Assembly (NCBI RefSeq): GCF_041886205.1
Contig: NZ_CP169029.1
Reading direction: 5' to 3' (one strand)
Source of the DNA: Escherichia coli
Lineage (GTDB): Bacteria; Pseudomonadota; Gammaproteobacteria; Enterobacterales; Enterobacteriaceae
DNA length: 64,000 nucleotides
The first letter of the stretch is position 1. Every line of letters starts with the position of its first letter. A program made the position numbers and the translations under genes. Shown here piece by piece: positions 923 through 55,331 of the stretch. Below the pieces are notes generated by a model. That model was not told where the DNA came from and searched no databases. It saw only the letters and a program-made list of their open reading frames with translations.

Positions 923-1717
923 TCATAATAATTGCGGCGGCGCAAAGCGACGGTTGTTTAAGACGGGCAGTTGCGCGCGCACCTGACGCACACGTTCGGG
1001 CGTCACTTCCGCCATAATGAGTGCAGGCATTTCTGACGCTGCCGCAATGGTGACGCCAAAGGGATCTATAATCCGGCTTTGCCCGATATTTTTGTTCCCG
1101 CACTCCCCCGCCGCCACCATATAACAGGTGGTATCCAGCGCACGAGCGGCAAGCAACGTTGACCAGTGATGCTCTTTGAGTGGCCCGCGAACCCAGGCGG
1201 CAGGAAGTACCAGGATTTCAGCTCCCTGTAATGCCTGTGCCAGCGCCAGCTCTGGAAAGCGTAAGTCATAACAGGTCATCAGACCGACCTTCATCCCCTC
1301 CACCTCGAGTAACGGAGCGATTTCATTACCAGCATCAACATGGCGTGATTCCTGAATGGCAAATGCATCATAGAGATGCAGTTTGGCATAACGGGCGACG
1401 ATGTTTCCTGCCTGTAGCGCCACCAGCATATTCCATGCGCGCCCCGGCGTTGAAGGAACATGAATCGTCAGAATTGTCGTCATCATGTTACGTTTACTTT
1501 CTCGCCGTAAACGTCCGAGGAATTCGCCTTCCAGCAGCTGTGCTGATTTAACCGATAGATCTGCATCATGATCATCGCGCGCCTGCAATGCTTCCGGCAG
1601 GACAAACAGCGATACGTCGTTTTCCGCCGCCTGCGCCATCAACGAGGCACAAATCTCAGCGTTCTTTTCCCACACAGATGTAACAGCAAACTGTCCTGCG
1701 GCAACCAGCATTGCCAC
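923..1717 (-). CDS. ybeM: C-N hydrolase (nitrilase/amidase) family protein YbeM, apparently intact
   Basis: 264-aa uninterrupted ORF with C-N hydrolase-like sequence; start could be 1717 or 1711 (MAMLV/MLV). Confidence 0.85.
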
Positions 1718-1803
1718 CTCCTGTCAGAGTCGTAAAATTCGCCAACGACGATTATTCGGCGTTACACTTATCACTCATACAAATCAAATAGCAGGATTTT
1801 GCA

Positions 1804-2187
1804 GTGTTACAACTTCTTTTAGCAGTTTTTATTGGCGGTGGTACGGGAAGCGTGGCGAGATGGCTGTTAAGTATGCGATTTAACCCACTGCATCAGGCGA
1901 TTCCGTTGGGGACGCTGGCAGCAAACCTGATTGGGGCATTCATCATAGGAATGGGATTCGCCTGGTTCAGCAGGATGACGAACATTGATCCAGTGTGGAA
2001 AGTATTAATCACCACCGGATTTTGTGGCGGTCTAACAACCTTCTCAACATTTTCGGCAGAAGTGGTGTTTTTGTTACAAGAGGGCCGCTTTGGCTGGGCG
2101 TTACTGAACGTTTTCGTCAACCTTCTGGGGTCTTTTGCCATGACCGCACTGGCTTTCTGGCTGTTTTCGGCCTCAACCGCACACTAA
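1804..2187 (+). CDS. crcB: fluoride channel CrcB/FluC
   Basis: 127-aa hydrophobic [26 protein letters not shown]... matches CrcB; GTG start. Confidence 0.93.
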
Positions 2188-2193
2188 AGACCA

Positions 2194-2224
2194 AAAAAAA
2201 CCCGCTGATTAAGCGGGTTTTGAA
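2194..2224. terminator. bidirectional intrinsic terminator between crcB and cspE
   Basis: A-run, hairpin ACCCGCT-gatta-AGCGGGT, T-run; convergent genes on both sides. Confidence 0.7.
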
Positions 2225-2240
2225 TTCTTGCTGACGTATC

Positions 2241-2450
2241 TTACAGAGCGATTACGTTTGCAGCAGAAGGGCCTTTGGCACCGTTAGTGATTTCGAACTC
2301 TACGCGCTGACCTTCAGCAAGAGTTTTAAAACCATTAGTCTGGATTGCAGAGAAGTGTACGAACACGTCTTTGCTGCCGTCTTCCGGAGTAATGAAACCG
2401 AATCCTTTGGACTCATTAAACCACTTAACGTTACCTTTAATCTTAGACAT
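2241..2450 (-). CDS. cspE: cold-shock-domain protein CspE
   Basis: 69-aa [36 protein letters not shown]... ; ORF track start trimmed to ATG at 2450. Confidence 0.95.
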
Positions 2451-2624
2451 CAAAATTACCTTTACATGAAAAATAGACACAAATGCTGTGTCGGTTACCA
2501 GTACACCAATTGTGGTACGCTTTGTCCAGTGCAACTTTACTAAAAAGTGATAAAAGTCGCGTTATTTTTGATGTTACTTATTTTAGTTATTGATTTTAAA
2601 GAAGTTACTAAAACTTCATTTGTC

Positions 2625-3185
2625 TCAAAACTGAAAGCGCATCCAGGCAAAGTAAACATTGCCATTGTTGTAGGTACCCGGAATGTAGGTCATCTGAAAA
2701 GTCACTGGGCCATAACCCACGGAGGCCAATGGCAGTAGAACCGGGAGAGGGATGTAATTCCAGTTATCGCGTGCCGTTACGCCAGCGGTGAATCCCAGAC
2801 CTAAATGAAAATTTTCATCCGCCAGCGGTCGCCAGGTACTTTCCCATCCGTATCCGGCAATCGGTTCCCATTTGTTCCACGAGTCCTTAAATGCCATGGC
2901 ATACAGGCCATGCCAGTTTCCTTTTTCATCCCAACGCGACAGGCCAAAACCGCCACCCCACGGTCGCTCGTTATAGCGATCGGTTTTTTCTTTGTCGTAA
3001 GCGAAACGTGCATGCCAGGTGATGGCAGGAATATATAAATCATAATGTTCAGGCTGTTGCCAGGTTTGTGCAATATTTTCTCTAAACGTTGTCATCCACT
3101 CATCTGCGTTAGCAAAAACTTTACCAACGCTGATTAACTGAATAAAAACAAAGGAAAAGATAGCGACATATTTACTCACGTTCAT
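2625..3185 (-). CDS. pagP: lipid A palmitoyltransferase PagP (CrcA)
   Basis: 186-aa [33 protein letters not shown]... with signal peptide; start trimmed to ATG at 3185. Confidence 0.93.
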
Positions 3186-3670
3186 TTGTGACCATAAAAC
3201 ATTTATCAAAAATCTACTACTAGCATAGCAAAGCTACAATTAACATAACCTTAATAGCCCCAACATAAAGAATAATCTGAATAGCTGCTCTATTTATTTC
3301 CGCTTGTTTAAGTTAAATATTTCCGCGCATCGATTAAAGATGATGCGTCGTTTTCTGCGATGGGAATAGTCAAAAAAGAAAAACCAAGTCTTTTTTGATG
3401 ACAAAATGCAATCAAGGAAATATTTCTTTATTTTTTAATTGGATACAACAATCATCTTAACGAAGTATATAATATATATCGTCAACCCATGCTCATGGTA
3501 GATTATTTTCTGAGCACGCAACCGCAGCTAACACCATTGCGATTAACAAATTTGCATCAATCCCCCATCAATTTACACACATTATTATGTGATAATTGCC
3601 AACCGCTAAATATGCGTTTTGTTATCTACGTATAAAAACAGCAACTTCAATGTGTTAATGGCAGTTTTTC

Positions 3671-3684
3671 TTGATTTTAATCAG
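3671..3684. promoter_or_regulatory. FNR-like box (TTGAT-N4-ATCAG) upstream of dcuC
   Basis: ttgattttaatcag about 95 bp upstream of the dcuC ATG; dcuC is known to be anaerobically induced via FNR; motif match only. Confidence 0.4.
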
Positions 3685-3773
3685 CATTCATCGCCAATTT
3701 ATTGGGCATATTTTTTCCTTAAGTTTTAGGAATTTTTTATTATTTACTTTGGGGCCTGGAGACAGGAAAAATT

Positions 3774-5159
3774 ATGCTGACATTCATTGAACTCCTTATT
3801 GGGGTTGTGGTTATTGTGGGTGTAGCTCGCTACATCATTAAAGGGTATTCCGCCACTGGTGTGTTATTTGTCGGTGGCCTGTTATTGCTGATTATCAGTG
3901 CCATTATGGGGCACAAAGTGTTACCGTCCAGCCAGGCTTCAACAGGCTACAGCGCCACGGATATCGTTGAATACGTTAAAATATTGCTAATGAGCCGCGG
4001 CGGCGACCTCGGCATGATGATTATGATGCTGTGTGGCTTTGCCGCTTACATGACCCATATCGGCGCGAATGATATGGTGGTCAAGCTGGCGTCAAAACCA
4101 TTGCAGTATATTAACTCCCCTTACCTGCTGATGATTGCCGCCTATTTTGTTGCCTGTCTGATGTCACTGGCCGTCTCTTCCGCAACCGGTCTGGGTGTTT
4201 TGCTGATGGCAACCCTGTTTCCGGTGATGGTAAACGTTGGTATCAGTCGTGGGGCAGCAGCTGCCATTTGTGCCTCCCCGGCGGCGATTATTCTCGCACC
4301 GACTTCAGGGGATGTGGTGCTGGCGGCGCAAGCTTCCGAAATGTCACTGATTGACTTCGCCTTCAAAACGACGCTGCCGATCTCAATTGCTGCAATTATC
4401 GGCATGGCGATCGCCCACTTCTTCTGGCAACGTTATCTGGATAAAAAAGAGCACATCTCTCATGAAATGTTAGATGTCAGTGAAATCACCACCACTGCTC
4501 CTGCGTTTTATGCCATTTTGCCGTTCACGCCGATCATCGGCGTACTGATTTTTGACGGCAAATGGGGTCCGCAATTACACATCATCACTATTCTGGTGAT
4601 TTGTATGCTGATTGCCTCCATTCTGGAGTTCCTCCGCAGCTTTAATACCCAGAAAGTTTTCTCTGGTCTGGAAGTGGCTTATCGCGGTATGGCAGATGCA
4701 TTTGCTAACGTGGTGATGCTGCTGGTTGCCGCTGGGGTATTCGCTCAGGGGCTTAGCACCATCGGCTTTATTCAAAGTCTGATTTCTATCGCCACCTCGT
4801 TTGGTTCGGCGAGTATCATCCTGATGCTGGTATTGGTGATCCTGACAATGCTGGCGGCAGTCACGACCGGTTCAGGCAATGCGCCGTTTTATGCGTTTGT
4901 TGAGATGATCCCGAAACTGGCGCACTCTTCCGGCATTAACCCGGCGTATTTGACTATCCCGATGCTGCAGGCGTCAAACCTGGGCCGTACCCTTTCGCCC
5001 GTTTCTGGCGTAGTCGTTGCGGTTGCCGGGATGGCGAAGATCTCGCCGTTTGAAGTCGTAAAACGCACCTCGGTGCCGGTGCTTGTTGGTTTGGTGATTG
5101 TTATCGTTGCTACAGAGCTGATGGTGCCAGGAACGGCAGCAGCGGTCACAGGCAAGTAA
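3774..5159 (+). CDS. dcuC: anaerobic C4-dicarboxylate transporter DcuC
   Basis: 461-aa polytopic membrane ORF matching DcuC over full length. Confidence 0.95.
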   Translation: MLTFIELLIGVVVIVGVARYIIKGYSATGVLFVGGLLLLIISAIMGHKVLPSSQASTGYSATDIVEYVKILLMSRGGDLGMMIMMLCGFAAYMTHIGANDMVVKLASKPLQYINSPYLLMIAAYFVACLMSLAVSSATGLGVLLMATLFPVMVNVGISRGAAAAICASPAAIILAPTSGDVVLAAQASEMSLIDFAFKTTLPISIAAIIGMAIAHFFWQRYLDKKEHISHEMLDVSEITTTAPAFYAILPFTPIIGVLIFDGKWGPQLHIITILVICMLIASILEFLRSFNTQKVFSGLEVAYRGMADAFANVVMLLVAAGVFAQGLSTIGFIQSLISIATSFGSASIILMLVLVILTMLAAVTTGSGNAPFYAFVEMIPKLAHSSGINPAYLTIPMLQASNLGRTLSPVSGVVVAVAGMAKISPFEVVKRTSVPVLVGLVIVIVATELMVPGTAAAVTGK

Positions 5160-5167
5160 ATAGTAAT

Positions 5168-5194
5168 GCCGGAGGCAAGTTTCCTCCGGCTTTA
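5168..5194. terminator. bidirectional intrinsic terminator between dcuC and dpiA
   Basis: hairpin GCCGGAGG-caagttt-CCTCCGGC followed by TTTAT. Confidence 0.7.
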
Positions 5195-5199
5195 TCATG

Positions 5200-5880
5200 T
5201 CACCCACTGTGGTATATGCGTTGCGGTCTGCCAACTTTGCCGTGAGCAATTTCAGCAATAATCAGATGGCGGCTGGCGCAATATTCAAGATAACGCCTGG
5301 CAGTGGTGCGGCTGATGGTCAGTGCCTGCGCCACCGTTTCTGCCGTATGTTGCACACCAGGCTCTTTAAACAGTTTTCGCACCGCGTTTAGCGTCAAGGG
5401 GTCAATGCCGGTCGGCAGTTCGTCTTTAGGTTCACCGCGAGCATAGGCATTAAACATCTCATCAATTTGCTTCTGGCTGGCGCTATCAATACTTTCCAGC
5501 ATATGTTTACGCTGGCGGAAACGGGTTAGCGTTTGCCCCAGCCGTTCATAGGCAATGGGCTTAATGAGATAATCAAATACACCACAACGTACGGCTTCAG
5601 ACACCGTTTCCATATCGCTGGCTGCAGTGGTAAACACCACGTCGCCAGGATAATGCGCCTGCACCAGTTCATGCAGTAAATTAATCCCTCTACCGTCAGG
5701 AAGATAGTTATCGAGCAAGATTAGCCCCGGCTTAAAACGCTCGATCATCATTCGGGCCTGCGCCAGGTTTCCCGCCAGTAATATCTGACTGAATCCGGGA
5801 ATGTGACGAATATATTCCGCATGCATCTCTGCCAGCGGCGTTTCGTCCTCAACGATCAATAGGGTTAATGGAGCTGTCAT
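5200..5880 (-). CDS. dpiA: two-component response regulator DpiA (CitB)
   Basis: 226-aa ORF with receiver domain (LLIVEDE...) and C-terminal HTH; matches DpiA. Confidence 0.94.
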   Translation of the reverse strand: MTAPLTLLIVEDETPLAEMHAEYIRHIPGFSQILLAGNLAQARMMIERFKPGLILLDNYLPDGRGINLLHELVQAHYPGDVVFTTAASDMETVSEAVRCGVFDYLIKPIAYERLGQTLTRFRQRKHMLESIDSASQKQIDEMFNAYARGEPKDELPTGIDPLTLNAVRKLFKEPGVQHTAETVAQALTISRTTARRYLEYCASRHLIIAEIAHGKVGRPQRIYHSG

Positions 5881-46701: not shown

Positions 46702-46719
46702 ACCATAACCCCATGTTTA

Positions 46720-46790
46720 CTGTGCAATTTTTCATTGATTGCAGAAATATATTGATAATATTATTGATAACTATTTGCATTTGCAATAGC
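46720..46790. promoter_or_regulatory. Fur-regulated divergent fes/fepA promoter region
   Basis: attGATAATATTATTGATAACTatttgcatttgcaatagc contains overlapping iron boxes. Confidence 0.7.
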
Positions 46791-46943
46791 GTAATGGCGC
46801 GCCGTGGGAAGCGCGGACATTTATTAACCAACTGCACTGCGTGTCTTTCAGGATCAAAGGTTTTCGCGGTAGCGGGATGCGTCGTGTTGAGGACGACCAT
46901 GCCCGACAGTTGCAATTCGTGGCAAAAATGCAGGAATAAAACA

Positions 46944-49184
46944 ATGAACAAGAAGATTCATTCCCTGGCCTTGTTGGTCAATCTGGGGATTTATGGGGTA
47001 GCGCAGGCACAAGAGCCGACCGATACTCCTGTTTCACATGACGATACCATTGTCGTTACCGCCGCCGAGCAGAACTTACAGGCGCCTGGCGTTTCGACCA
47101 TCACCGCAGATGAAATCCGCAAAAACCCCGTTGCCCGCGATGTGTCGGAGATCATCCGTACCATGCCAGGCGTTAACCTGACCGGTAACTCCACCAGTGG
47201 TCAGCGTGGGAATAACCGACAGATTGATATTCGCGGTATGGGTCCGGAAAACACGCTGATTTTGATTGACGGCAAACCGGTCAGCAGCCGTAACTCGGTG
47301 CGTCAGGGCTGGCGTGGCGAGCGCGATACCCGTGGTGATACTTCCTGGGTGCCGCCTGAAATGATTGAACGTATTGAAGTTCTGCGTGGTCCGGCAGCAG
47401 CGCGTTATGGCAACGGCGCGGCGGGTGGCGTAGTTAACATCATTACCAAAAAAGGCAGCGGTGAGTGGCACGGTTCCTGGGACGCTTATTTCAATGCGCC
47501 AGAACATAAAGAGGAAGGTGCCACTAAACGCACCAACTTCAGCCTGACCGGTCCGCTGGGCGACGAATTCAGCTTCCGCTTGTATGGCAACCTCGACAAA
47601 ACCCAGGCTGACGCGTGGGATATCAACCAGGGCCATCAGTCCGCGCGTGCTGGAACGTATGCCACGACGTTACCAGCCGGGCGCGAAGGGGTGATCAACA
47701 AAGATATTAATGGTGTCATTCGTTGGGATTTCGCACCTATGCAGTCACTCGAACTGGAAGCGGGCTACAGCCGCCAAGGTAACCTGTATGCGGGCGATAC
47801 CCAGAACACCAATTCTGACGCTTACACTCGCTCGAAATATGGCGATGAAACCAACCGCCTGTATCGCCAGAACTACGCGCTGACCTGGAACGGTGGCTGG
47901 GATAACGGCGTGACCACCAGCAACTGGGTGCAGTACGAACACACCCGTAACTCGCGTATTCCGGAAGGTCTGGCAGGCGGTACCGAAGGGAAATTTAACG
48001 AAAAAGCGACACAGGATTTCGTCGATATCGATCTCGATGACGTGATGCTGCACAGCGAAGTTAACCTGCCGATTGATTTCCTCGTTAACCAGACGCTGAC
48101 GCTGGGTACGGAGTGGAATCAGCAGCGGATGAAGGACTTAAGTTCCAACACCCAGGCGCTGACCGGAACGAATACCGGTGGCGCTATTGATGGCGTGAGT
48201 GCCACCGACCGTAGCCCGTATTCAAAAGCAGAAATTTTCTCGCTGTTTGCCGAAAACAACATGGAGCTGACTGACAGCACCATCGTAACGCCGGGGCTGC
48301 GTTTCGATCATCACAGTATTGTCGGCAATAACTGGAGCCCGGCGCTCAACATATCGCAAGGTTTAGGCGATGACTTCACGCTGAAAATGGGCATTGCCCG
48401 CGCCTATAAAGCGCCGAGCCTGTACCAGACTAACCCGAACTACATTCTCTACAGTAAAGGTCAGGGCTGCTATGCCAGCGCGGGCGGCTGCTATCTGCAA
48501 GGTAACGATGACCTGAAAGCAGAAACCAGCATCAACAAAGAGATTGGTCTGGAGTTCAAGCGCGACGGCTGGCTGGCGGGCGTCACCTGGTTCCGTAACG
48601 ATTATCGCAATAAGATTGAAGCGGGCTATGTGGCTGTAGGGCAAAACGCAGTCGGCACCGATCTCTATCAGTGGGATAACGTGCCGAAAGCGGTGGTTGA
48701 AGGTCTGGAAGGATCGTTAAACGTACCGGTTAGCGAAACGGTGATGTGGACTAATAACATCACTTATATGCTGAAGAGTGAAAACAAAACCACGGGCGAC
48801 CGTTTGTCGATCATCCCGGAGTATACGTTGAACTCAACGCTGAGCTGGCAGGCACGGGAAGATTTGTCGATGCAAACGACCTTCACCTGGTACGGCAAGC
48901 AGCAGCCGAAGAAGTACAACTATAAAGGTCAGCCAGCAGTTGGCCCGGAAACCAAAGAAATCAGTCCGTACAGCATTGTTGGCCTGAGCGCGACCTGGGA
49001 TGTGACGAAGAACGTCAGTCTGATCGGCGGCGTGGACAACCTGTTCGACAAACGTTTGTGGCGTGCGGGTAATGCCCAGACCACGGGCGATTTGGCAGGA
49101 GCCAACTATATCGCGGGTGCCGGGGCGTATACCTATAACGAGCCGGGACGTACGTGGTACATGAGCGTTAATACTCACTTCTGA
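46944..49184 (+). CDS. fepA: TonB-dependent ferric enterobactin outer membrane receptor FepA
   Basis: 746-aa ORF MNKKIHSLALLVNLGIYGVAQAQEPTD... ending in C-terminal F; 77-codon upstream extension in ORF track rejected. Confidence 0.95.
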   Translation: MNKKIHSLALLVNLGIYGVAQAQEPTDTPVSHDDTIVVTAAEQNLQAPGVSTITADEIRKNPVARDVSEIIRTMPGVNLTGNSTSGQRGNNRQIDIRGMGPENTLILIDGKPVSSRNSVRQGWRGERDTRGDTSWVPPEMIERIEVLRGPAAARYGNGAAGGVVNIITKKGSGEWHGSWDAYFNAPEHKEEGATKRTNFSLTGPLGDEFSFRLYGNLDKTQADAWDINQGHQSARAGTYATTLPAGREGVINKDINGVIRWDFAPMQSLELEAGYSRQGNLYAGDTQNTNSDAYTRSKYGDETNRLYRQNYALTWNGGWDNGVTTSNWVQYEHTRNSRIPEGLAGGTEGKFNEKATQDFVDIDLDDVMLHSEVNLPIDFLVNQTLTLGTEWNQQRMKDLSSNTQALTGTNTGGAIDGVSATDRSPYSKAEIFSLFAENNMELTDSTIVTPGLRFDHHSIVGNNWSPALNISQGLGDDFTLKMGIARAYKAPSLYQTNPNYILYSKGQGCYASAGGCYLQGNDDLKAETSINKEIGLEFKRDGWLAGVTWFRNDYRNKIEAGYVAVGQNAVGTDLYQWDNVPKAVVEGLEGSLNVPVSETVMWTNNITYMLKSENKTTGDRLSIIPEYTLNSTLSWQAREDLSMQTTFTWYGKQQPKKYNYKGQPAVGPETKEISPYSIVGLSATWDVTKNVSLIGGVDNLFDKRLWRAGNAQTTGDLAGANYIAGAGAYTYNEPGRTWYMSVNTHF

Positions 49185-49223
49185 TGCTAACGTCAGATTG
49201 TTGACAAAGTGCGCGTCGTTCAT

Positions 49224-49324
49224 GCCGGATGCGGCGTGAACGCCTTATCAGGCCTACAAAAATCTTGTCAATTCAATATATTGCAGGATCACGTAGGCCT
49301 GATAAGCGTAGCGCATCAGGCAGT
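49224..49324. repeat. BIME: two REP elements in inverted orientation between fepA and entD
   Basis: GCCGGATGCGGCGTGAACGCCTTATCAGGCCTAC at 49224-49257 and GTAGGCCTGATAAGCGTAGCGCATCAGGCAG at 49294-49324. Confidence 0.85.
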
Positions 49325-49358
49325 TTTGCGTTTGTCATCAGTCTCTAATATGGTCGAC

Positions 49359-49979
49359 ATGAAAACTACGCATACCACCCTCCCCTTTGCCGGAAATACG
49401 CTGCATTTTGTTGAGTTCGATCCGGCGAGTTTTTGTGAGCAGGATTTACTCTGGCTGCCACACTACGCGCAACTGCAACACGCTGGACGGAAGCGCAAAG
49501 CCGAACATTTAGCCGGACGAGTCGCCGCCGTTCATGCTTTACGAGAGTATGGTTTGAAAGGCACACCTGCAATTGGTCGTCATCGCCAGCCTGTCTGGCC
49601 TGCGGAGGTATACGGCAGTATTAGCCACTGCGGGGCTACGGCATTGGCCGTGGTATCCCGTCAACCGATTGGTATTGATATCGAAGAAATTTTTTCTGCG
49701 CAAACAGCGACCGAATTGACAGACAACATTATTACACCAGCAGAACACGAGCGACTCGCAGACTGCGGTTTAGCCTTTTCTCTGGCGCTGACACTGGCAT
49801 TTTCCGCCAAAGAGAGCGCATTTAAGGCAAGTGAGATCCAAACTGATGCAGGTTTTCTGGACTATCAGATAATTAGCTGGAATAAACAGCAGGTCATCAT
49901 TCATCGTGAGAATGAGATATTTGCTGTGCACTGGCAGATAAAAGAGAAAATAGTCATAACTCTGTGCCAACACGATTAA
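49359..49979 (+). CDS. entD: enterobactin synthase phosphopantetheinyl transferase EntD
   Basis: 206-aa ORF MKTTHTTLPFAGNTLHFVEFDPASF...; ATG confirmed at 49359. Confidence 0.92.
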   Translation: MKTTHTTLPFAGNTLHFVEFDPASFCEQDLLWLPHYAQLQHAGRKRKAEHLAGRVAAVHALREYGLKGTPAIGRHRQPVWPAEVYGSISHCGATALAVVSRQPIGIDIEEIFSAQTATELTDNIITPAEHERLADCGLAFSLALTLAFSAKESAFKASEIQTDAGFLDYQIISWNKQQVIIHRENEIFAVHWQIKEKIVITLCQHD

Positions 49980-49998
49980 TTGACCACATCTGGTACGA

Positions 49999-50089
49999 TT
50001 CGCCCGCAGCCATCACTGACCGCGGGCGAAAGTGTAAAGCAGGTGCCTTACCACCCTGACCTGACAACCGGATATGCGGGGATTACTCC
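49999..50089 (-). repeat. hok mRNA 3'-end segment, copy 1 (contains hairpin CGCCCGC-N14-GCGGGCG), cut off from hokE by IS186-A
   Basis: 91-bp block about 98% identical to 51849-51941; ends in the IS186 target duplication. Confidence 0.7.
50080..50089. repeat. 10-bp target-site duplication of IS186-A (GGATTACTCC; second copy 51429-51438)
   Basis: identical decamer directly abutting both IS186-A ends. Confidence 0.85.
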
Positions 50090-51428
50090 CATAAGCGCTA
50101 ACTTAAGGGTTGAACCATCTGAAGAATGCGACGCCTCGGTGCCTCGTTAAGACGATGCCTCGCGTTCTTCAATTGCGTTTTGTAGGCTGTCAGGGATACT
50201 GTCCCACGAATGGCCACCTGTAAGCTCCAGATGACCATTTTTGTTATTCTCCACAACGAGTTAGTTCTTCTTTTCGGATCCGGCACTTCTGGGGGGGAAA
50301 TCCAGCGATGGCTGGATTATGTCGTCAATTAAAAATGCGGCGAGTAGATTAGCAAATATCCACGCTTTCGCGAGTTCAGGTTCCTTTGCACGCAAAGCAT
50401 CCAGGTGCAGCAAACTTTTGAGCCGCTTAAAAGCCAGTTCAATTTGCCATCGCAGACGGTAACAATCAGCCACTTGCTCTGCTGAATATTCATCTTCCGG
50501 TAATGATGTTAGCAATAGCACATGGCCCGCTGCTTCCAGCGTTTCCGCCTGAACTACTCGTCCTTTTCGACGATTCTCGCTGAGCAGTCGGGTTTTACTG
50601 ATTAATGCTTTTTCGGGAGGAAGTGATACGGCAATGAGACGTGCCGGAAAGGGAGCTCCGGCTTTTTTATTACCTGAATTGCCTATCATTACAGTGGTTT
50701 CACCGTTCTTACCGCAATCCAGCCCGCGCAGAAAACCCATCATGTCAAAGCGCATTCCTTCTGCAGTTAACCAGCGCAATCCTCGCCAGTGAACCCGGAC
50801 GATATAATCAGCTTCTCCAAAAGCAAGTGAGCGGATACATTCGGGACGCGAACCGAATCCCCGGTCAGCAATGCGTATCTCGTCTGCCGTTTGCGCAAAT
50901 CGGTCCAGCCGTTCAGCGTCTCTGCTGTCGGTTAGCTCAAAATCAGTGAACTGACAGGTATGAGGATCATATCCCATATGTAGTCGCCATTCAGCGCTGC
51001 CGCCCCCGGGCGCACTGATTGCTGTTCCATCGACAAGACGCAATCTCTTTCCGCTTGTACAACCCGTAACTGCGGCGCGTACAGCAAGTGTTTGTGCGGC
51101 AAGTATGCCAAACCAGTCGGCGGCATTCCGCAGCCGCTTCAGGAGAGCCACGTCAGATAATGTTGCAACGTCATGGAGCTGAGCCCATGCAGTGACTTCA
51201 CGTAATGACATCCCCCCGGGGCCGTAAGCCAGCCCCAGACGTAGCAGAGTTGCAGCATCACGAATTTCGCGGCGGCGGGTTAGAGCCCCGGCATTACGTG
51301 CCGAAGTATCCAGTTCTTCGGGCTTACCAATATGGGCCAGAATTGCTGACCAGTTATCGTGAGAGTAATTCATCGGCACGTTAAATCATATCAGGCGTAA
51401 TACCACAACCCTTAAGTTAGCGCTTATG
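50090..51428 (-). mobile_element. IS186 (IS4 family) copy A
   Basis: 1339 bp; perfect 23-bp terminal inverted repeats CATAAGCGCTAACTTAAGGGTTG at 50090-50112 and 51406-51428; encodes InsL. Confidence 0.95.
50261..51373 (-). CDS. insL: IS186 transposase InsL
   Basis: 370-aa ORF MNYSHDNWSAILAHIGKPEELDTSARNAG... Confidence 0.95.
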   Translation of the reverse strand: MNYSHDNWSAILAHIGKPEELDTSARNAGALTRRREIRDAATLLRLGLAYGPGGMSLREVTAWAQLHDVATLSDVALLKRLRNAADWFGILAAQTLAVRAAVTGCTSGKRLRLVDGTAISAPGGGSAEWRLHMGYDPHTCQFTDFELTDSRDAERLDRFAQTADEIRIADRGFGSRPECIRSLAFGEADYIVRVHWRGLRWLTAEGMRFDMMGFLRGLDCGKNGETTVMIGNSGNKKAGAPFPARLIAVSLPPEKALISKTRLLSENRRKGRVVQAETLEAAGHVLLLTSLPEDEYSAEQVADCYRLRWQIELAFKRLKSLLHLDALRAKEPELAKAWIFANLLAAFLIDDIIQPSLDFPPRSAGSEKKN

Positions 51429-51449
51429 GGATTACTCCCCGCACAGCGG

Positions 51450-51602
51450 CTACTTCTTCGGTTCGTAAGCGAGAACAGCCTTAAACTCAATATTACGTTC
51501 CTTTACCGTAAACTCACACAACGAGTCTCCGACCAGAAGCGTAAATCCCAGCACCGTCAAACACAGCACTATGACTGCCACAAGGGCATATTTCGTCAGC
51601 AT
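51450..51602 (-). CDS. hokE: Hok-family type I toxin HokE (an in-frame upstream mok extension runs to 51701)
   Basis: 50-aa [53 protein letters not shown]; ATG at 51602. Confidence 0.9.
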
Positions 51603-51848
51603 GTTTATATTGCCTCCATGCGAAGAAGGGACTACCATCCGAGTTGTTGAGGTTCGGAGTGGCAGCCCCAGGATTGATAGAAATTTCTCCTGGGGCTTCA
51701 TCTTTCCAGACCTCAGAGTTAACCTGAAACCGGAAAGCTTCAGGCACCCGCCGTTATCTTACCCTTCCTTAGCAAAATAGCTGTTTATTTATACAGTGAG
51801 TCCTGTTTCGGACTTCTGTCAGCAAAACTCATCATTGCTCTTAAAACG

Positions 51849-51941
51849 AAATCGCCCGCAGCCATCACTGACCGCGGGCGAAAGTGTAAAGCAGGTGCCT
51901 TACCATCCTGACCTGACAACCGGATATGCGGGGATTGCTCC
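51849..51941 (-). repeat. hok mRNA 3'-end segment, copy 2, cut off from the second hok copy by IS186-B
   Basis: near-identical to 49999-50089 (2 SNPs). Confidence 0.7.
51932..51941. repeat. 10-bp target-site duplication of IS186-B (GGATTGCTCC; second copy 53281-53290)
   Basis: identical decamer abutting both ends of IS186-B; differs by one base from the IS186-A duplication. Confidence 0.85.
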
Positions 51942-53280
51942 CATAAGCGCTAACTTAAGGGTTGTGGTATTACGCCTGATATGATTTAACGTGCCGATGA
52001 ATTACTCTCACGATAACTGGTCAGCAATTCTGGCCCATATTGGTAAGCCCGAAGAACTGGATACTTCGGCACGTAATGCCGGGGCTCTAACCCGCCGCCG
52101 CGAAATTCGTGATGCTGCAACTCTGCTACGTCTGGGGCTGGCTTACGGCCCCGGGGGGATGTCATTACGTGAAGTCACTGCATGGGCTCAGCTCCATGAC
52201 GTTGCAACATTATCTGACGTGGCTCTCCTGAAGCGGCTGCGGAATGCCGCCGACTGGTTTGGCATACTTGCCGCACAAACACTTGCTGTACGCGCCGCAG
52301 TTACGGGTTGTACAAGCGGAAAGAGATTGCGTCTTGTCGATGGAACAGCAATCAGTGCGCCCGGGGGCGGCAGCGCTGAATGGCGACTACATATGGGATA
52401 TGATCCTCATACCTGTCAGTTCACTGATTTTGAGCTAACCGACAGCAGAGACGCTGAACGGCTGGACCGATTTGCGCAAACGGCAGACGAGATACGCATT
52501 GCTGACCGGGGATTCGGTTCGCGTCCCGAATGTATCCGCTCACTTGCTTTTGGAGAAGCTGATTATATCGTCCGGGTTCACTGGCGAGGATTGCGCTGGT
52601 TAACTGCAGAAGGAATGCGCTTTGACATGATGGGTTTTCTGCGCGGGCTGGATTGCGGTAAGAACGGTGAAACCACTGTAATGATAGGCAATTCAGGTAA
52701 TAAAAAAGCCGGAGCTCCCTTTCCGGCACGTCTCATTGCCGTATCACTTCCTCCCGAAAAAGCATTAATCAGTAAAACCCGACTGCTCAGCGAGAATCGT
52801 CGAAAAGGACGAGTAGTTCAGGCGGAAACGCTGGAAGCAGCGGGCCATGTGCTATTGCTAACATCATTACCGGAAGATGAATATTCAGCAGAGCAAGTGG
52901 CTGATTGTTACCGTCTGCGATGGCAAATTGAACTGGCTTTTAAGCGGCTCAAAAGTTTGCTGCACCTGGATGCTTTGCGTGCAAAGGAACCTGAACTCGC
53001 GAAAGCGTGGATATTTGCTAATCTACTCGCCGCATTTTTAATTGACGACATAATCCAGCCATCGCTGGATTTCCCCCCCAGAAGTGCCGGATCCGAAAAG
53101 AAGAACTAACTCGTTGTGGAGAATAACAAAAATGGTCATCTGGAGCTTACAGGTGGCCATTCGTGGGACAGTATCCCTGACAGCCTACAAAACGCAATTG
53201 AAGAACGCGAGGCATCGTCTTAACGAGGCACCGAGGCGTCGCATTCTTCAGATGGTTCAACCCTTAAGTTAGCGCTTATG
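51942..53280 (+). mobile_element. IS186 (IS4 family) copy B, inverted relative to copy A
   Basis: 1339 bp; same 23-bp terminal inverted repeats at 51942-51964 and 53258-53280; encoded protein identical to copy A. Confidence 0.95.
51997..53109 (+). CDS. insL: IS186 transposase InsL
   Basis: 370-aa ORF identical to the copy-A transposase. Confidence 0.95.
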   Translation: MNYSHDNWSAILAHIGKPEELDTSARNAGALTRRREIRDAATLLRLGLAYGPGGMSLREVTAWAQLHDVATLSDVALLKRLRNAADWFGILAAQTLAVRAAVTGCTSGKRLRLVDGTAISAPGGGSAEWRLHMGYDPHTCQFTDFELTDSRDAERLDRFAQTADEIRIADRGFGSRPECIRSLAFGEADYIVRVHWRGLRWLTAEGMRFDMMGFLRGLDCGKNGETTVMIGNSGNKKAGAPFPARLIAVSLPPEKALISKTRLLSENRRKGRVVQAETLEAAGHVLLLTSLPEDEYSAEQVADCYRLRWQIELAFKRLKSLLHLDALRAKEPELAKAWIFANLLAAFLIDDIIQPSLDFPPRSAGSEKKN

Positions 53281-53301
53281 GGATTGCTCCCCGCACAACG
53301 G

Positions 53302-53454
53302 CTACTTCTTCGGTTCGTAAGCGAGAACAGCCTTAAACTCAATATTACGTTCCTTCACCGTAAACTCACACAGCGAGTCGCCGACCAGAAGCGTAAATCC
53401 CAGCACCGTTAAACACAGTACTATGACTGCCGCAAGGGCATATTTCGTCAGCAT
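53302..53454 (-). CDS. second Hok-family toxin paralog (ORF intact; mok leader interrupted by IS150)
   Basis: 50-aa [53 protein letters not shown], one substitution versus HokE. Confidence 0.75.
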
Positions 53455-53551
53455 GTTTATATTGCCTCCATGCGAAGAAGGGACTACCATCCAAATTGTT
53501 CAGGTTTGGGTAGGTAGCCCTAGGGTGTACTGACCCCAAAAAGTTGGACAG

Positions 53552-54403
53552 TTAAACACGAGGCATATAGGTCTGATTCCGATATTCAATTGGAGTCAGA
53601 CCTTTTAATTTCAGGCTAATTCTTCTGCTGTTGTAGTATTCAATATATTCCGTAACAGCATCCTTCAGTTCGCTTATATTACTGAACTCATCAAGATAAA
53701 AACACTCCGACTTTAAGGTTCCAAAGAAACACTCCACCACAGCATTATCCAGACAATTGCCTTTTCTGGACATGCTTTGTTTAATACCATGTTCTTTAAG
53801 GATATTTTGATATCTTCTCATACGATACTGCCATCCCTGGTCAGAGTGCAGAACAGGATGCTCGTGAGGATTAAGCTTTTTGAATGCCTGATCGAGCATA
53901 TTCTCAACCATGTTCATCACTGGTCTTTCCGAAAGGCTGTAAGAAATAACTTCATTGTTGAAGAGATCTATTACTGGAGACAAATACAGCTTGCGCCCAT
54001 TGACTGCAAATTCAGTAACATCGGTAACCCACTTCTCGTTTGGCCGCGTAGCCTTGAAATCTCTTTGGAGAACATTGGGGGCGGTTTGCCCTACCTCTCT
54101 TCTGTAAGAGCGGTATCGCTTGACCTTAATCGCTGCCTTAAGTGAGAGGGTTCCCATCAGGCGCTGAACAGCTTTATGGTTAATCTGTTTCCCTTCTCGA
54201 TGAAGAGACAGCGTTACCCTACGGTATCCGTATCGGCCTCTATTCTCATGATAAATCTCACCAATACGCTTTTTAACGCCCGCATACTTGTCAGGCTTGC
54301 TGAGAGCCTTTAGATGGTAATAAAACGTACTGCGCGGTATCTCCGCAGCCCTGAGAAGCTCATCAAGAGGATAAAACTGCCTTAGCTCGTTGAGTACTTT
54401 CAC
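53552..54403 (-). CDS. insK: IS150 transposase OrfB (InsB; catalytic DDE domain)
   Basis: 283-aa [33 protein letters not shown]... Confidence 0.9.
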
Positions 54404-54921
54404 TTTTTCGTGGGATGAGCTAAGGCTTTCAGCTTTTTTAGATACACAAGCCGCGTTTCAAGAAATCGAACTTGCCTTTCAAGATCCTCAATGCGTCGGT
54501 CTTTTGACAGCTCCAATGCTGATGCCGCTTTTTCTGGATCAACTGATATTGCAATGTTTCTTTTGGTGCCAATCTTGAGCGCGCGTAAACCAGCTTCTCC
54601 GCGATCTTCATAAACCTTCAGCCACCTGGCTACAGAACCACTACCAGCAAGCATAAAGTGAGCAGCAGCCTGATTAAGGGACATGTGCTGCTCGATCACA
54701 GCTTTCACGACCTTAATACGCAACTCTGGATCAGCACTAACGCCTTTAGGTTTGGGAATTAAACCTTTTTCTCCATGTTTTTCATAGAGGGCAACCCATG
54801 TCCTGACCTGGGTTCGGGGGACACCAAAACGTGCCGAGATGATCCTGTAACCATCATCAGTTGTGAAGTAGTGATTCACGACTTCAAGGCGCTTTTCAAA
54901 AGGGTATTTTGGCTTTGACAT
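54400..54921 (-). CDS. insJ: IS150 OrfA (InsA; HTH DNA-binding)
   Basis: 173-aa ORF MSKPKYPFEKRLEVVNHYFTTDDGYRIISARF... Confidence 0.9.
   Translation of the reverse strand: MSKPKYPFEKRLEVVNHYFTTDDGYRIISARFGVPRTQVRTWVALYEKHGEKGLIPKPKGVSADPELRIKVVKAVIEQHMSLNQAAAHFMLAGSGSVARWLKVYEDRGEAGLRALKIGTKRNIAISVDPEKAASALELSKDRRIEDLERQVRFLETRLVYLKKLKALAHPTKK
54433..54439 (-). promoter_or_regulatory. programmed -1 ribosomal frameshift heptamer (A AAA AAG) joining IS150 orfA to orfB
   Basis: CTAAAAAAG near the end of orfA in the orfA/orfB overlap, as described for IS3-family elements. Confidence 0.6.
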
Positions 54922-55331
54922 ATTAGGGGCTATTCCATTTCATCGTCCAACAAAATGGGTGCAGTACAGGGTTGATAGAAATATCTCCTGGGGCTTCATC
55001 TTTCCAGACCTCAGAGTAAACCTGAAACCGGAAAGCTTCAGGCACCCGCCGTTATCTTACCCTTCCTCAACAAAATAGCTGTTTATTTATACAGTAAATC
55101 CTGTTTCGGACTTCTCACTCCTCATTTAATCAACTGAAGCTGAACCCGTTTTTTCTGCATGCCTCAATCGTCAAAATTCTTCGCCGCCAGCCAGCTAAGA
55201 CGCAACTGGTCACATTGCAAAAGTAGCCAAATTACTTCAGTCACCATCACCAAAAAAAAGAAACATTCCAGAACTTCCGCATCTCGCCCAGCCGCTCCCA
55301 CTTCTATACTGAATGGAAAACGCCAACATAA

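Follow-up and report, generated by a model that had tools for sequence, protein, structure and literature searches.

Paired IS186 copies in the tandem hokE hairpins of Escherichia coli: probable separate insertions, an invertible 513-bp segment and a candidate composite unit

How do two identical copies of one insertion sequence (IS) come to lie, in opposite orientation, at the same position behind two neighbouring paralogs of one toxin gene, and what can such a pair do to the DNA between them? The question is raised by a 64,000-nucleotide stretch of an Escherichia coli genome (RefSeq assembly GCF_041886205.1, contig NZ_CP169029.1; hereafter the window), in which the E. coli fepA-entD/ybdK intergenic locus of the type I toxin-antitoxin (TA) gene hokE is present in a tandem two-copy form and each copy harbours IS186. 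From a survey of 5426 complete E. coli genomes, all compared as assemblies, we consider it likely that IS186 entered each hok hairpin separately and that the resulting inverted pair lets the enclosed segment flip and the whole unit move. In the order of events that we infer, IS186 would have inserted once per orientation, each insertion giving the usual 10-bp duplication and cutting a hok open reading frame (ORF) from its 3' fold-back/terminator block; homologous recombination between the two copies would then invert the 513-bp segment (hokE-A, mok, sok and the hokE-B 3' block), and the 3191-bp IS186-segment-IS186 unit would be mobilised by transposase at its two outer ends, as a composite transposon landing once more in a hok hairpin.

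Both hokE units lie on the minus strand, each in the order 3' block, hok ORF and mok/sok leader, with a repeat unit of 1852 bp whose non-IS parts are 94-98% identical between the units while the IS copies are 100% identical. The parts on which the argument turns are these:

50000-50089, minus strand: 3' block of the hokE-A mRNA, a terminator-like hairpin plus a presumed fold-back element; 98% direct repeat of 51852-51941, severed from its ORF by IS186-A
50080-50089: left duplication copy of IS186-A, GGATTACTCC, the last 10 bp of the hokE-A 3' block
50090-51428, minus strand: IS186-A, 1339 bp, with its transposase ORF at 50261-51379 (minus); outer end IRR (right inverted repeat), inner end IRL (left inverted repeat)
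51429-51941, minus strand: segment between the IS copies, 513 bp, holding the right duplication of A, hokE-A, the mok-like ORF, sok and the hokE-B 3' block
51429-51438: right duplication of IS186-A, GGATTACTCC
51450-51602, minus strand: hokE-A ORF
51450-51701, minus strand: mok-like ORF of hokE-A, 83 amino acids (aa)
51594-51749: sok antisense region of unit A (Rfam sok RF01794, 80.2 bits against a gathering score of 59)
51852-51941, minus strand: 3' block of hokE-B, ending in GGATTGCTCC, with a terminator-like hairpin at 51881-51852
51942-53280, plus strand: IS186-B, 1339 bp, with its transposase ORF at 51991-53109 (plus); inner end IRL, outer end IRR
53281-53290: right duplication of IS186-B, GGATTGCTCC
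53302-53454, minus strand: hokE-B ORF, followed by the start of its leader up to 53525; the region 53281-53525 has a partial Rfam sok match of 23.7 bits

An earlier interpretation of the window from its letters alone (the sequence-only reading) had placed two identical, opposite IS186 copies between hok stop codon and 3' hairpin block and had described 1.34-kb perfect inverted repeats around a 513-bp segment; both descriptions are borne out by the coordinates and by reverse-complement identity. IS186-A and IS186-B, 1339 bp each, are exact reverse complements, and, owing to partly palindromic flanks, the perfect inverted repeat reaches 3 nt beyond the element on either side. Exactly four occurrences of the 23-bp terminal repeat CATAAGCGCTAACTTAAGGGTTG lie in the window (0 expected by chance), one at each IS end, such that the composite unit (50090-53280, 3191 bp) is bounded at both outer ends by IRR with an intact 23-bp repeat. 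The element is IS186 by every test applied: both copies are identical over 1339/1339 positions to IS186A and IS186B of E. coli K-12 MG1655, the same DNA is annotated in RefSeq genomes as an IS4-like element IS421 family transposase (WP_001300563.1), and the 372-aa transposase ORF matches the NCBIfam IS4-family model NF033592 with 133.2 bits (cut-off 115). We considered the identity of the two copies as a sign of recent insertion and rejected it, since nearly all strains examined carry one and the same IS186 sequence, and such near-invariance makes copy identity uninformative on age.

The Hok ORFs of both units encode 50 aa, copy B being identical to K-12 HokE and copy A differing by A8V, and NCBIfam Hok models match both, yet under their cut-offs. 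IS186 separates the ORF from the ~90-bp 3' block with its terminator-like hairpin in both units, and neither retains the contiguous ORF and 3' fold-back element needed for classical regulation. By analogy with gef/hokC, where a downstream IS186 is thought to disrupt the fold-back element (PMC3562002), normal hokE mRNA processing may thus be disrupted by IS186.

Why this position? Each hokE paralog keeps a hairpin of the form GCGGGG-N6-CCCCGC (GCGGGGTTTTACCCCCGC) that begins 1 bp past the last base of the stop codon, and each IS186 starts 11 bp past that base. The 10-bp duplications are GGATTACTCC on both sides of IS186-A and GGATTGCTCC on both sides of IS186-B, and the empty sites as rebuilt read GCGGGGATTACTCCCCGC for A and GCGGGGATTGCTCCCCGC for B, both beginning at that same 1-bp distance from the hok stop codon. 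IS186 is known to insert at a single site of the lon promoter in either orientation (PMC3045373, citing saiSree et al. 2001), and its target consensus, that of saiSree 2001 as cited in PMC3045373 and PMC3861542, calls for a G run and a C run separated by 3-6 nt and an insertion that duplicates about 10 bp; GC-rich IS186 targets, and an IS186 adjoining the hok/sok system at cysH-cas, are likewise on record (PMC3903273). The hok hairpin, with its G run, short spacer and C run, fits this target, and the GGGG-N6-CCCC-like preference invoked by the sequence-only reading holds for both window insertions, whose 10-bp duplications lie inside GGGG-N6-CCCC.

The same pattern was found at four other IS186-hok junctions, all with 10-bp duplications inside runs of four or more G and four or more C set 4-6 nt apart. 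At K-12 hokE the element occupies a position identical to that in the window, with the same duplication (GGATTACTCC), and at K-12 hokC it lies in the homologous hairpin (duplication GGATCACTCC); the other two are a hok gene between cas3 and cysH (GGTTTTACCC) and a Klebsiella plasmid hok (GGGCTTCCCC). All rebuilt IS186-hok sites fold as G/C-stem hairpins with variable loops.

On the Klebsiella pneumoniae plasmid pCAV1344-250, IS186 (1501-2839 of the retrieved stretch) is identical to the window copies and lies in a GGGGG-N4-CCCCCC hairpin directly behind hok, a junction that recurs on several Klebsiella and Raoultella plasmids. Plasmid p510016_84 (2013-5484 of the retrieved stretch) has two inverted IS186 copies that enclose an unrelated ORF at a spacing of 794 bp and have separate 10-bp duplications (GGCTTTCGCC and GTGCGTATCC); one of these non-hok insertions fits the target consensus, the other departing from it with just three G and a spacer of 7 nt. 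The p510016_84 pair, from two separate insertions, is another potential IS186 composite or invertible unit.

Is the hok hairpin a hotspot at the population level? The sequence-only reading had proposed comparing the occupancy of this site across E. coli genomes, and in our survey the junction between 3' block and IS186 is present in the orientation of copy A in 1715 of the 5426 genomes (K-12 included) and in that of copy B in 285. Where two hokE sites are filled, all four orientation pairs occur: (-,+) as in the window, (+,-) in O104:H4 C227-11, (-,-) in O104:H4 2009EL-2071 and GB089, and (+,+) in AL.H8 and ECO2947. The two-IS layout was detected in at least 94 independent complete genomes (61 inverted pairs plus at least 35 same-orientation pairs, minus two counted only via a copy at cas3-cysH). 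Two ideas about these counts were dropped. That same-orientation pairs are quickly deleted and only inverted ones survive is contradicted by at least 19 (-,-) and at least 16 (+,+) genomes, which makes them about as common; and a count of tandem versus single hokE loci with a query spanning leader A and 3' block B gave an unusable 3588, as non-collinear pieces were joined and single-unit genomes reach full coverage.

The orientation of a single copy also differs between close relatives. O104:H4 2009EL-2071 (-,-) and C227-11 (+,-) show 0 differences in 700, 513 and 1800 bp of non-IS sequence, with the first IS186 opposite, and these 2009 and 2011 isolates suggest that the orientation of a single IS186 at hok hairpins may switch on clonal time scales. 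A derivation of (+,-) from (-,+) by recombinational flips via the inverted state, conceivable on paper, was rejected: it predicts an exchange of paralog single-nucleotide polymorphisms (SNPs) of which none is seen (0 differences in the middle segment), and such a chain of flips is also unable to yield same-orientation states with an un-inverted middle.

Does the segment between the copies invert? A synthetic inverted locus, composed of window 49990-51428, the reverse complement of 51429-51941 and 51942-53524, matched strains c1-17, O111:H8 SF26 102-1, SW070910 and 2017-02-2CC in one piece with 100% coverage, and the inverted sequences of SF26 102-1 and SW070910 were read directly. The mirror layout (+,-) is inverted in five further strains, SCPM-O-B-9427 and TUM1857 (read directly) and VTB97432v, ZH177 and FCI23 (by hit pattern), and among 59 strains with inverted IS pairs, hit patterns overall put the flipped segment in about 9. 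Inverted loci show their inner decamers as reverse complements, precisely what crossing over within the IS copies should produce. Two sister pairs differ at the locus by nothing else: SW070910 and SW071620, wastewater isolates collected on one island, match at every position of 13,534 bp except for an exact reverse complement of the segment, and SCPM-O-B-9427 and O104:H4 C227-11 agree throughout about 8.2 kb except for its exact inversion. The suggestion that the 513-bp segment could invert by homologous recombination has thereby gained natural examples, with both orientations in otherwise identical backgrounds. The window strain is known in one orientation only, and since its decamers pair correctly across each IS, the window represents the original, un-inverted state. 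For hokE-A the flip is probably neutral, since IS186 separates it from any 3' block either way.

Can the unit also move? In strains 118C_1_fosA3 and 20.1 the best match of the inverted query lay between cas3 and cysH, not at hokE. Here, a complete IS186-513 bp-IS186 unit occupies the resident hok hairpin with GGTTTTACCC on both sides, its passenger is identical (513/513) to the hokE-locus segments of several strains, and both strains also retain the unit at hokE. The cas3-cysH copy of 20.1 is identical to that strain's own hokE copy over 3191/3191 positions, including two SNPs that set it apart from 118C, and that of 118C matches its own hokE copy except for a 1-bp indel. Such a pattern is expected if each strain made its own intragenomic copy, or if the two copies were homogenised afterwards. 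The 513-bp piece was very probably copied as a unit to another hok locus, and a second copy with its own 10-bp duplication in two strains lends support, as far as sequence comparison can, to composite transposition and hence to the earlier suggestion that the unit could move as a composite.

The alternative that survives best, unlikely as we judge it, traces the cas3-cysH copy to homologous recombination or gene conversion of a single resident IS186 with the hokE locus. Many close relatives carry a single IS186 at the exact cas3-cysH site, with the same duplication and 100% identical flanks, and the two inverted copies at hokE would offer long homology. The junctions speak against such an exchange, for the hok-side flank adjoins IRR where the composite is present but IRL where a single IS186 is, the absence of any transferred hokE-type flank means that a conversion would have had to cross over within the 23-bp terminal repeat common to both, and one clean 10-bp duplication bounds the whole unit, which is a signature of transposition. 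Since the relatives suggest that an IS186 probably already held the site, composite transposition would require that element to have been lost first, or else an unusual recombination must be assumed; an IS186 insertion at the lon hotspot was unstable in one case and reverted by precise excision (PMC3861542), and a loss of this kind would free the cas3-cysH site.

A further rival concerns the origin of the pair itself: a single IS186 insertion might have been duplicated together with hokE as a tandem 1852-bp unit, one copy later turning in place. The units are indeed exactly 1852 bp apart with the IS at exactly the same position in both, unit number changes, presumably by unequal exchange (three in EC12, one in VE-T9; see below), same-orientation pairs exist, and several strains have all four decamers identical. 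Inverted copies, in turn, exclude a simple duplication of one insertion, and turning an IS in place needs recombination across a perfect inverted repeat of only ~26 bp (the 23-bp ends plus 3 bp of flank). Moreover, strain 405 has a tandem hokE pair in which only the second site is occupied and the first is empty, and the non-IS parts of the window units differ by 2-6% around identical IS copies, so that the gene duplication is older than the IS copies. We therefore regard a duplicated insertion as improbable.

The decamers contribute less to this conclusion than the sequence-only reading had assumed. Each window copy does have its own 10-bp duplication, which matches its own paralog, but the A/G difference between them is no stable marker of the paralogs, because strains of the same layout have G (QA-1986 83 and LZSFT34) or A (FCI17) at all four decamer junctions. 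The IS copies of these strains are still inverted, which invalidates the rule that identical decamers at both copies would indicate a duplicated insertion. Two independent insertions into a hotspot remain the supported reading, partly on other grounds, namely the inverted copies, strain 405, the junction counts and the four orientation combinations.

Least probable of all, and very unlikely in our estimate, is an assembly artefact in which the 513-bp segment of the window or of the inverted forms was oriented arbitrarily or one IS was wrongly duplicated: short reads are unable to resolve such a structure, our material consists of assemblies, and sister pairs differing only in orientation are what arbitrary choice would also give, but the two-IS layout recurs in those at least 94 independent genomes, the window decamers pair across each IS as expected of an un-inverted locus, the inverted assemblies show the exact decamer swap predicted by real recombination, and complete genomes are usually built from long reads that would span the 3.2-kb structure, a general expectation for such records.

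Four observations nevertheless weigh against separate entry followed by flipping and movement. With assemblies as the sole material, some calls of the 513-bp orientation could reflect a choice made in assembly, or whichever state prevailed in a mixed culture. Only 2 of the 5426 genomes show the unit's second copy, and the close relatives of precisely these two strains have the single IS186 at the cas3-cysH site with the same duplication. Finally, the four orientation combinations all share an identical flanking haplotype and a middle segment with 0 differences; such orientation diversity on one haplotype is surprisingly fast for independent neutral insertions, and allelic exchange, loss and re-insertion, or unequal crossing-over may be at work instead.

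A search for the hokE composite on plasmids did not find it, and the four plasmids with two inverted IS186 copies represent separate insertions with their own duplications and unrelated inserts. A bolder proposal, in which IS186-hokE/sokE-IS186 would be an active composite transposon with a TA cassette as passenger, homing into other hok loci via the conserved hok-mRNA hairpin while single IS copies switch orientation on clonal time scales, is one that we put forward tentatively and hold to be somewhat less probable than its opposite.

The hokE locus is rearranged in other ways among relatives of the window strain. E. coli VE-T9 (NZ_AP027963.1) and its group have a single hokE unit that equals the window minus 1852 bp, with mismatched decamers around IS186 (1681-3039 of the retrieved stretch), A-type GGATTACTCC on the left and G-type GGATTGCTCC on the right. 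The most plausible account of the VE-T9 layout is that a window-type layout lost the DNA between its 113-bp direct repeats (each a 3' block plus an IS terminus), possibly by single-strand annealing after excision of IS186-A. E. coli EC12 (NZ_CP095830.1) has three hokE units with IS186 in each, in the orientations (-,-,+), the number of units having presumably changed by unequal exchange. In MB53, the closest relative of the window (99.8%), the inverted IS186 copies (2601-3939 and 4453-5791 of the retrieved stretch) have two private SNPs in common (position 26 G>T and position 804 C>A) and are annotated with an internal stop; the shared SNPs suggest that gene conversion may have acted between the inverted copies. 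In FCI17 and TUM1857 a pair of SDR oxidoreductase genes, not entD, lies to the left of the hokE units and homology to the window begins exactly at the repeat-unit boundary (49999); FCI17 has the IS150-bearing unit first.

IS150 is a further element of the window, where it splits the mok/sok leader of hokE-B, which is thus interrupted twice (by IS186 and IS150). It is flanked by a 3-bp duplication, GGG (53523-53525 and 54969-54971), and the Rfam sok model also gives a match that covers 54892-55047. IS150 is absent from MB53, and many single-unit genomes have it at apparently the same position. The features that surround the two IS186 copies are:

46713-49979, plus strand: fepA-entD, the left neighbours of the hokE locus
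53526-54968, minus strand: IS150, 1443 bp, with ends TGTACTG...CAGTACA and InsJ/InsK-like ORFs, annotated in relatives as IS3-like element IS150
54969-55115, minus strand: remaining hokE-B leader and sok region, a direct repeat of 51669-51702 with a BLAST match to window 51669-51817
55341 onward, plus strand: ybdK, the right neighbour of the hokE locus

Within the fepA-entD intergenic region, Rfam ES036 (CssrF) matches at 49259-49300, just over its gathering score, and naRNA4 matches weakly at 49213-49254; both are probably REP-like repeats.

What does the locus add to what is known? The target preference of IS186, its presence beside hok genes and the inversion or co-mobilisation of DNA by IS pairs are largely textbook. 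New are the population picture of two hotspots with free orientation, the natural flip in sister isolates and a probable IS186 composite that carries a TA cassette; an IS186 composite with hokE/sokE appears to be undescribed, and neither a published IS186 composite nor a Tn number for one was found in the literature searched. A conserved RNA hairpin that doubles as a DNA target means that one IS keeps striking every member of a gene family, and two such insertions create a small segment that flips and probably moves. The hokE locus is consequently a recurrent source of differences between close E. coli genomes, O104:H4 included, in segment orientation, IS orientation and unit number (one to three), and in outbreak comparisons these differences can be mistaken for assembly errors or masked by them. 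Should the composite prove mobile, IS186 would have its first described composite and a type I TA cassette a new route of intrachromosomal copying; and if the unit is active and homes to hok hairpins, the hok family could spread and rearrange by a route that reinforces itself.

The nearest known counterpart is K-12 itself, where Pedersen and Gerdes reportedly described, in Mol Microbiol in 1999, IS186 beside the hok genes (hokE/IS186B and hokC/gef/IS186A); the K-12 loci interrupted in this way are assumed to be inert. K-12 and the window have in common the identical element, the hokE position with its duplication, the homologous hairpin at hokC and an ORF separated from its 3' fold-back; whereas K-12 has one hokE unit with one IS186, the window has two paralogous occupied units with inverted IS copies, plus IS150 in the second leader. 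The lon-promoter hotspot, as described in the papers cited above, resembles the hok sites in its GC-rich, partly palindromic target, in the use of one exact recurrent position in either orientation and in the ~10-bp duplication. Unlike lon, the hok target is the conserved RNA hairpin of a TA family and hence is repeated in chromosomal and plasmid paralogs. We know of no selectable phenotype for IS186 insertions at hok hairpins.

Composite transposons with inverted IS4-family copies are exemplified by Tn10 (IS10) and Tn5 (IS50), and IS-flanked invertible segments are also familiar. As in Tn10 and Tn5, inverted IS4-family copies in the window unit bracket a passenger that recombination can invert, and the outer ends may together give a single duplication around the whole unit; unlike in these transposons, the passenger is a 513-bp type I TA cassette instead of a resistance gene, the IS copies are identical and both look intact, and movement of the unit is deduced from two genomes. 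In the passages searched of a preprint on Hok homologs (bioRxiv 10.1101/2025.08.07.668861), which do not treat IS186 as a driver of islet rearrangement, 10% of the homologs lie in tandem islets of two to six copies less than 2 kb apart that arise by local duplication, and the two hokE units of the window fit this description.

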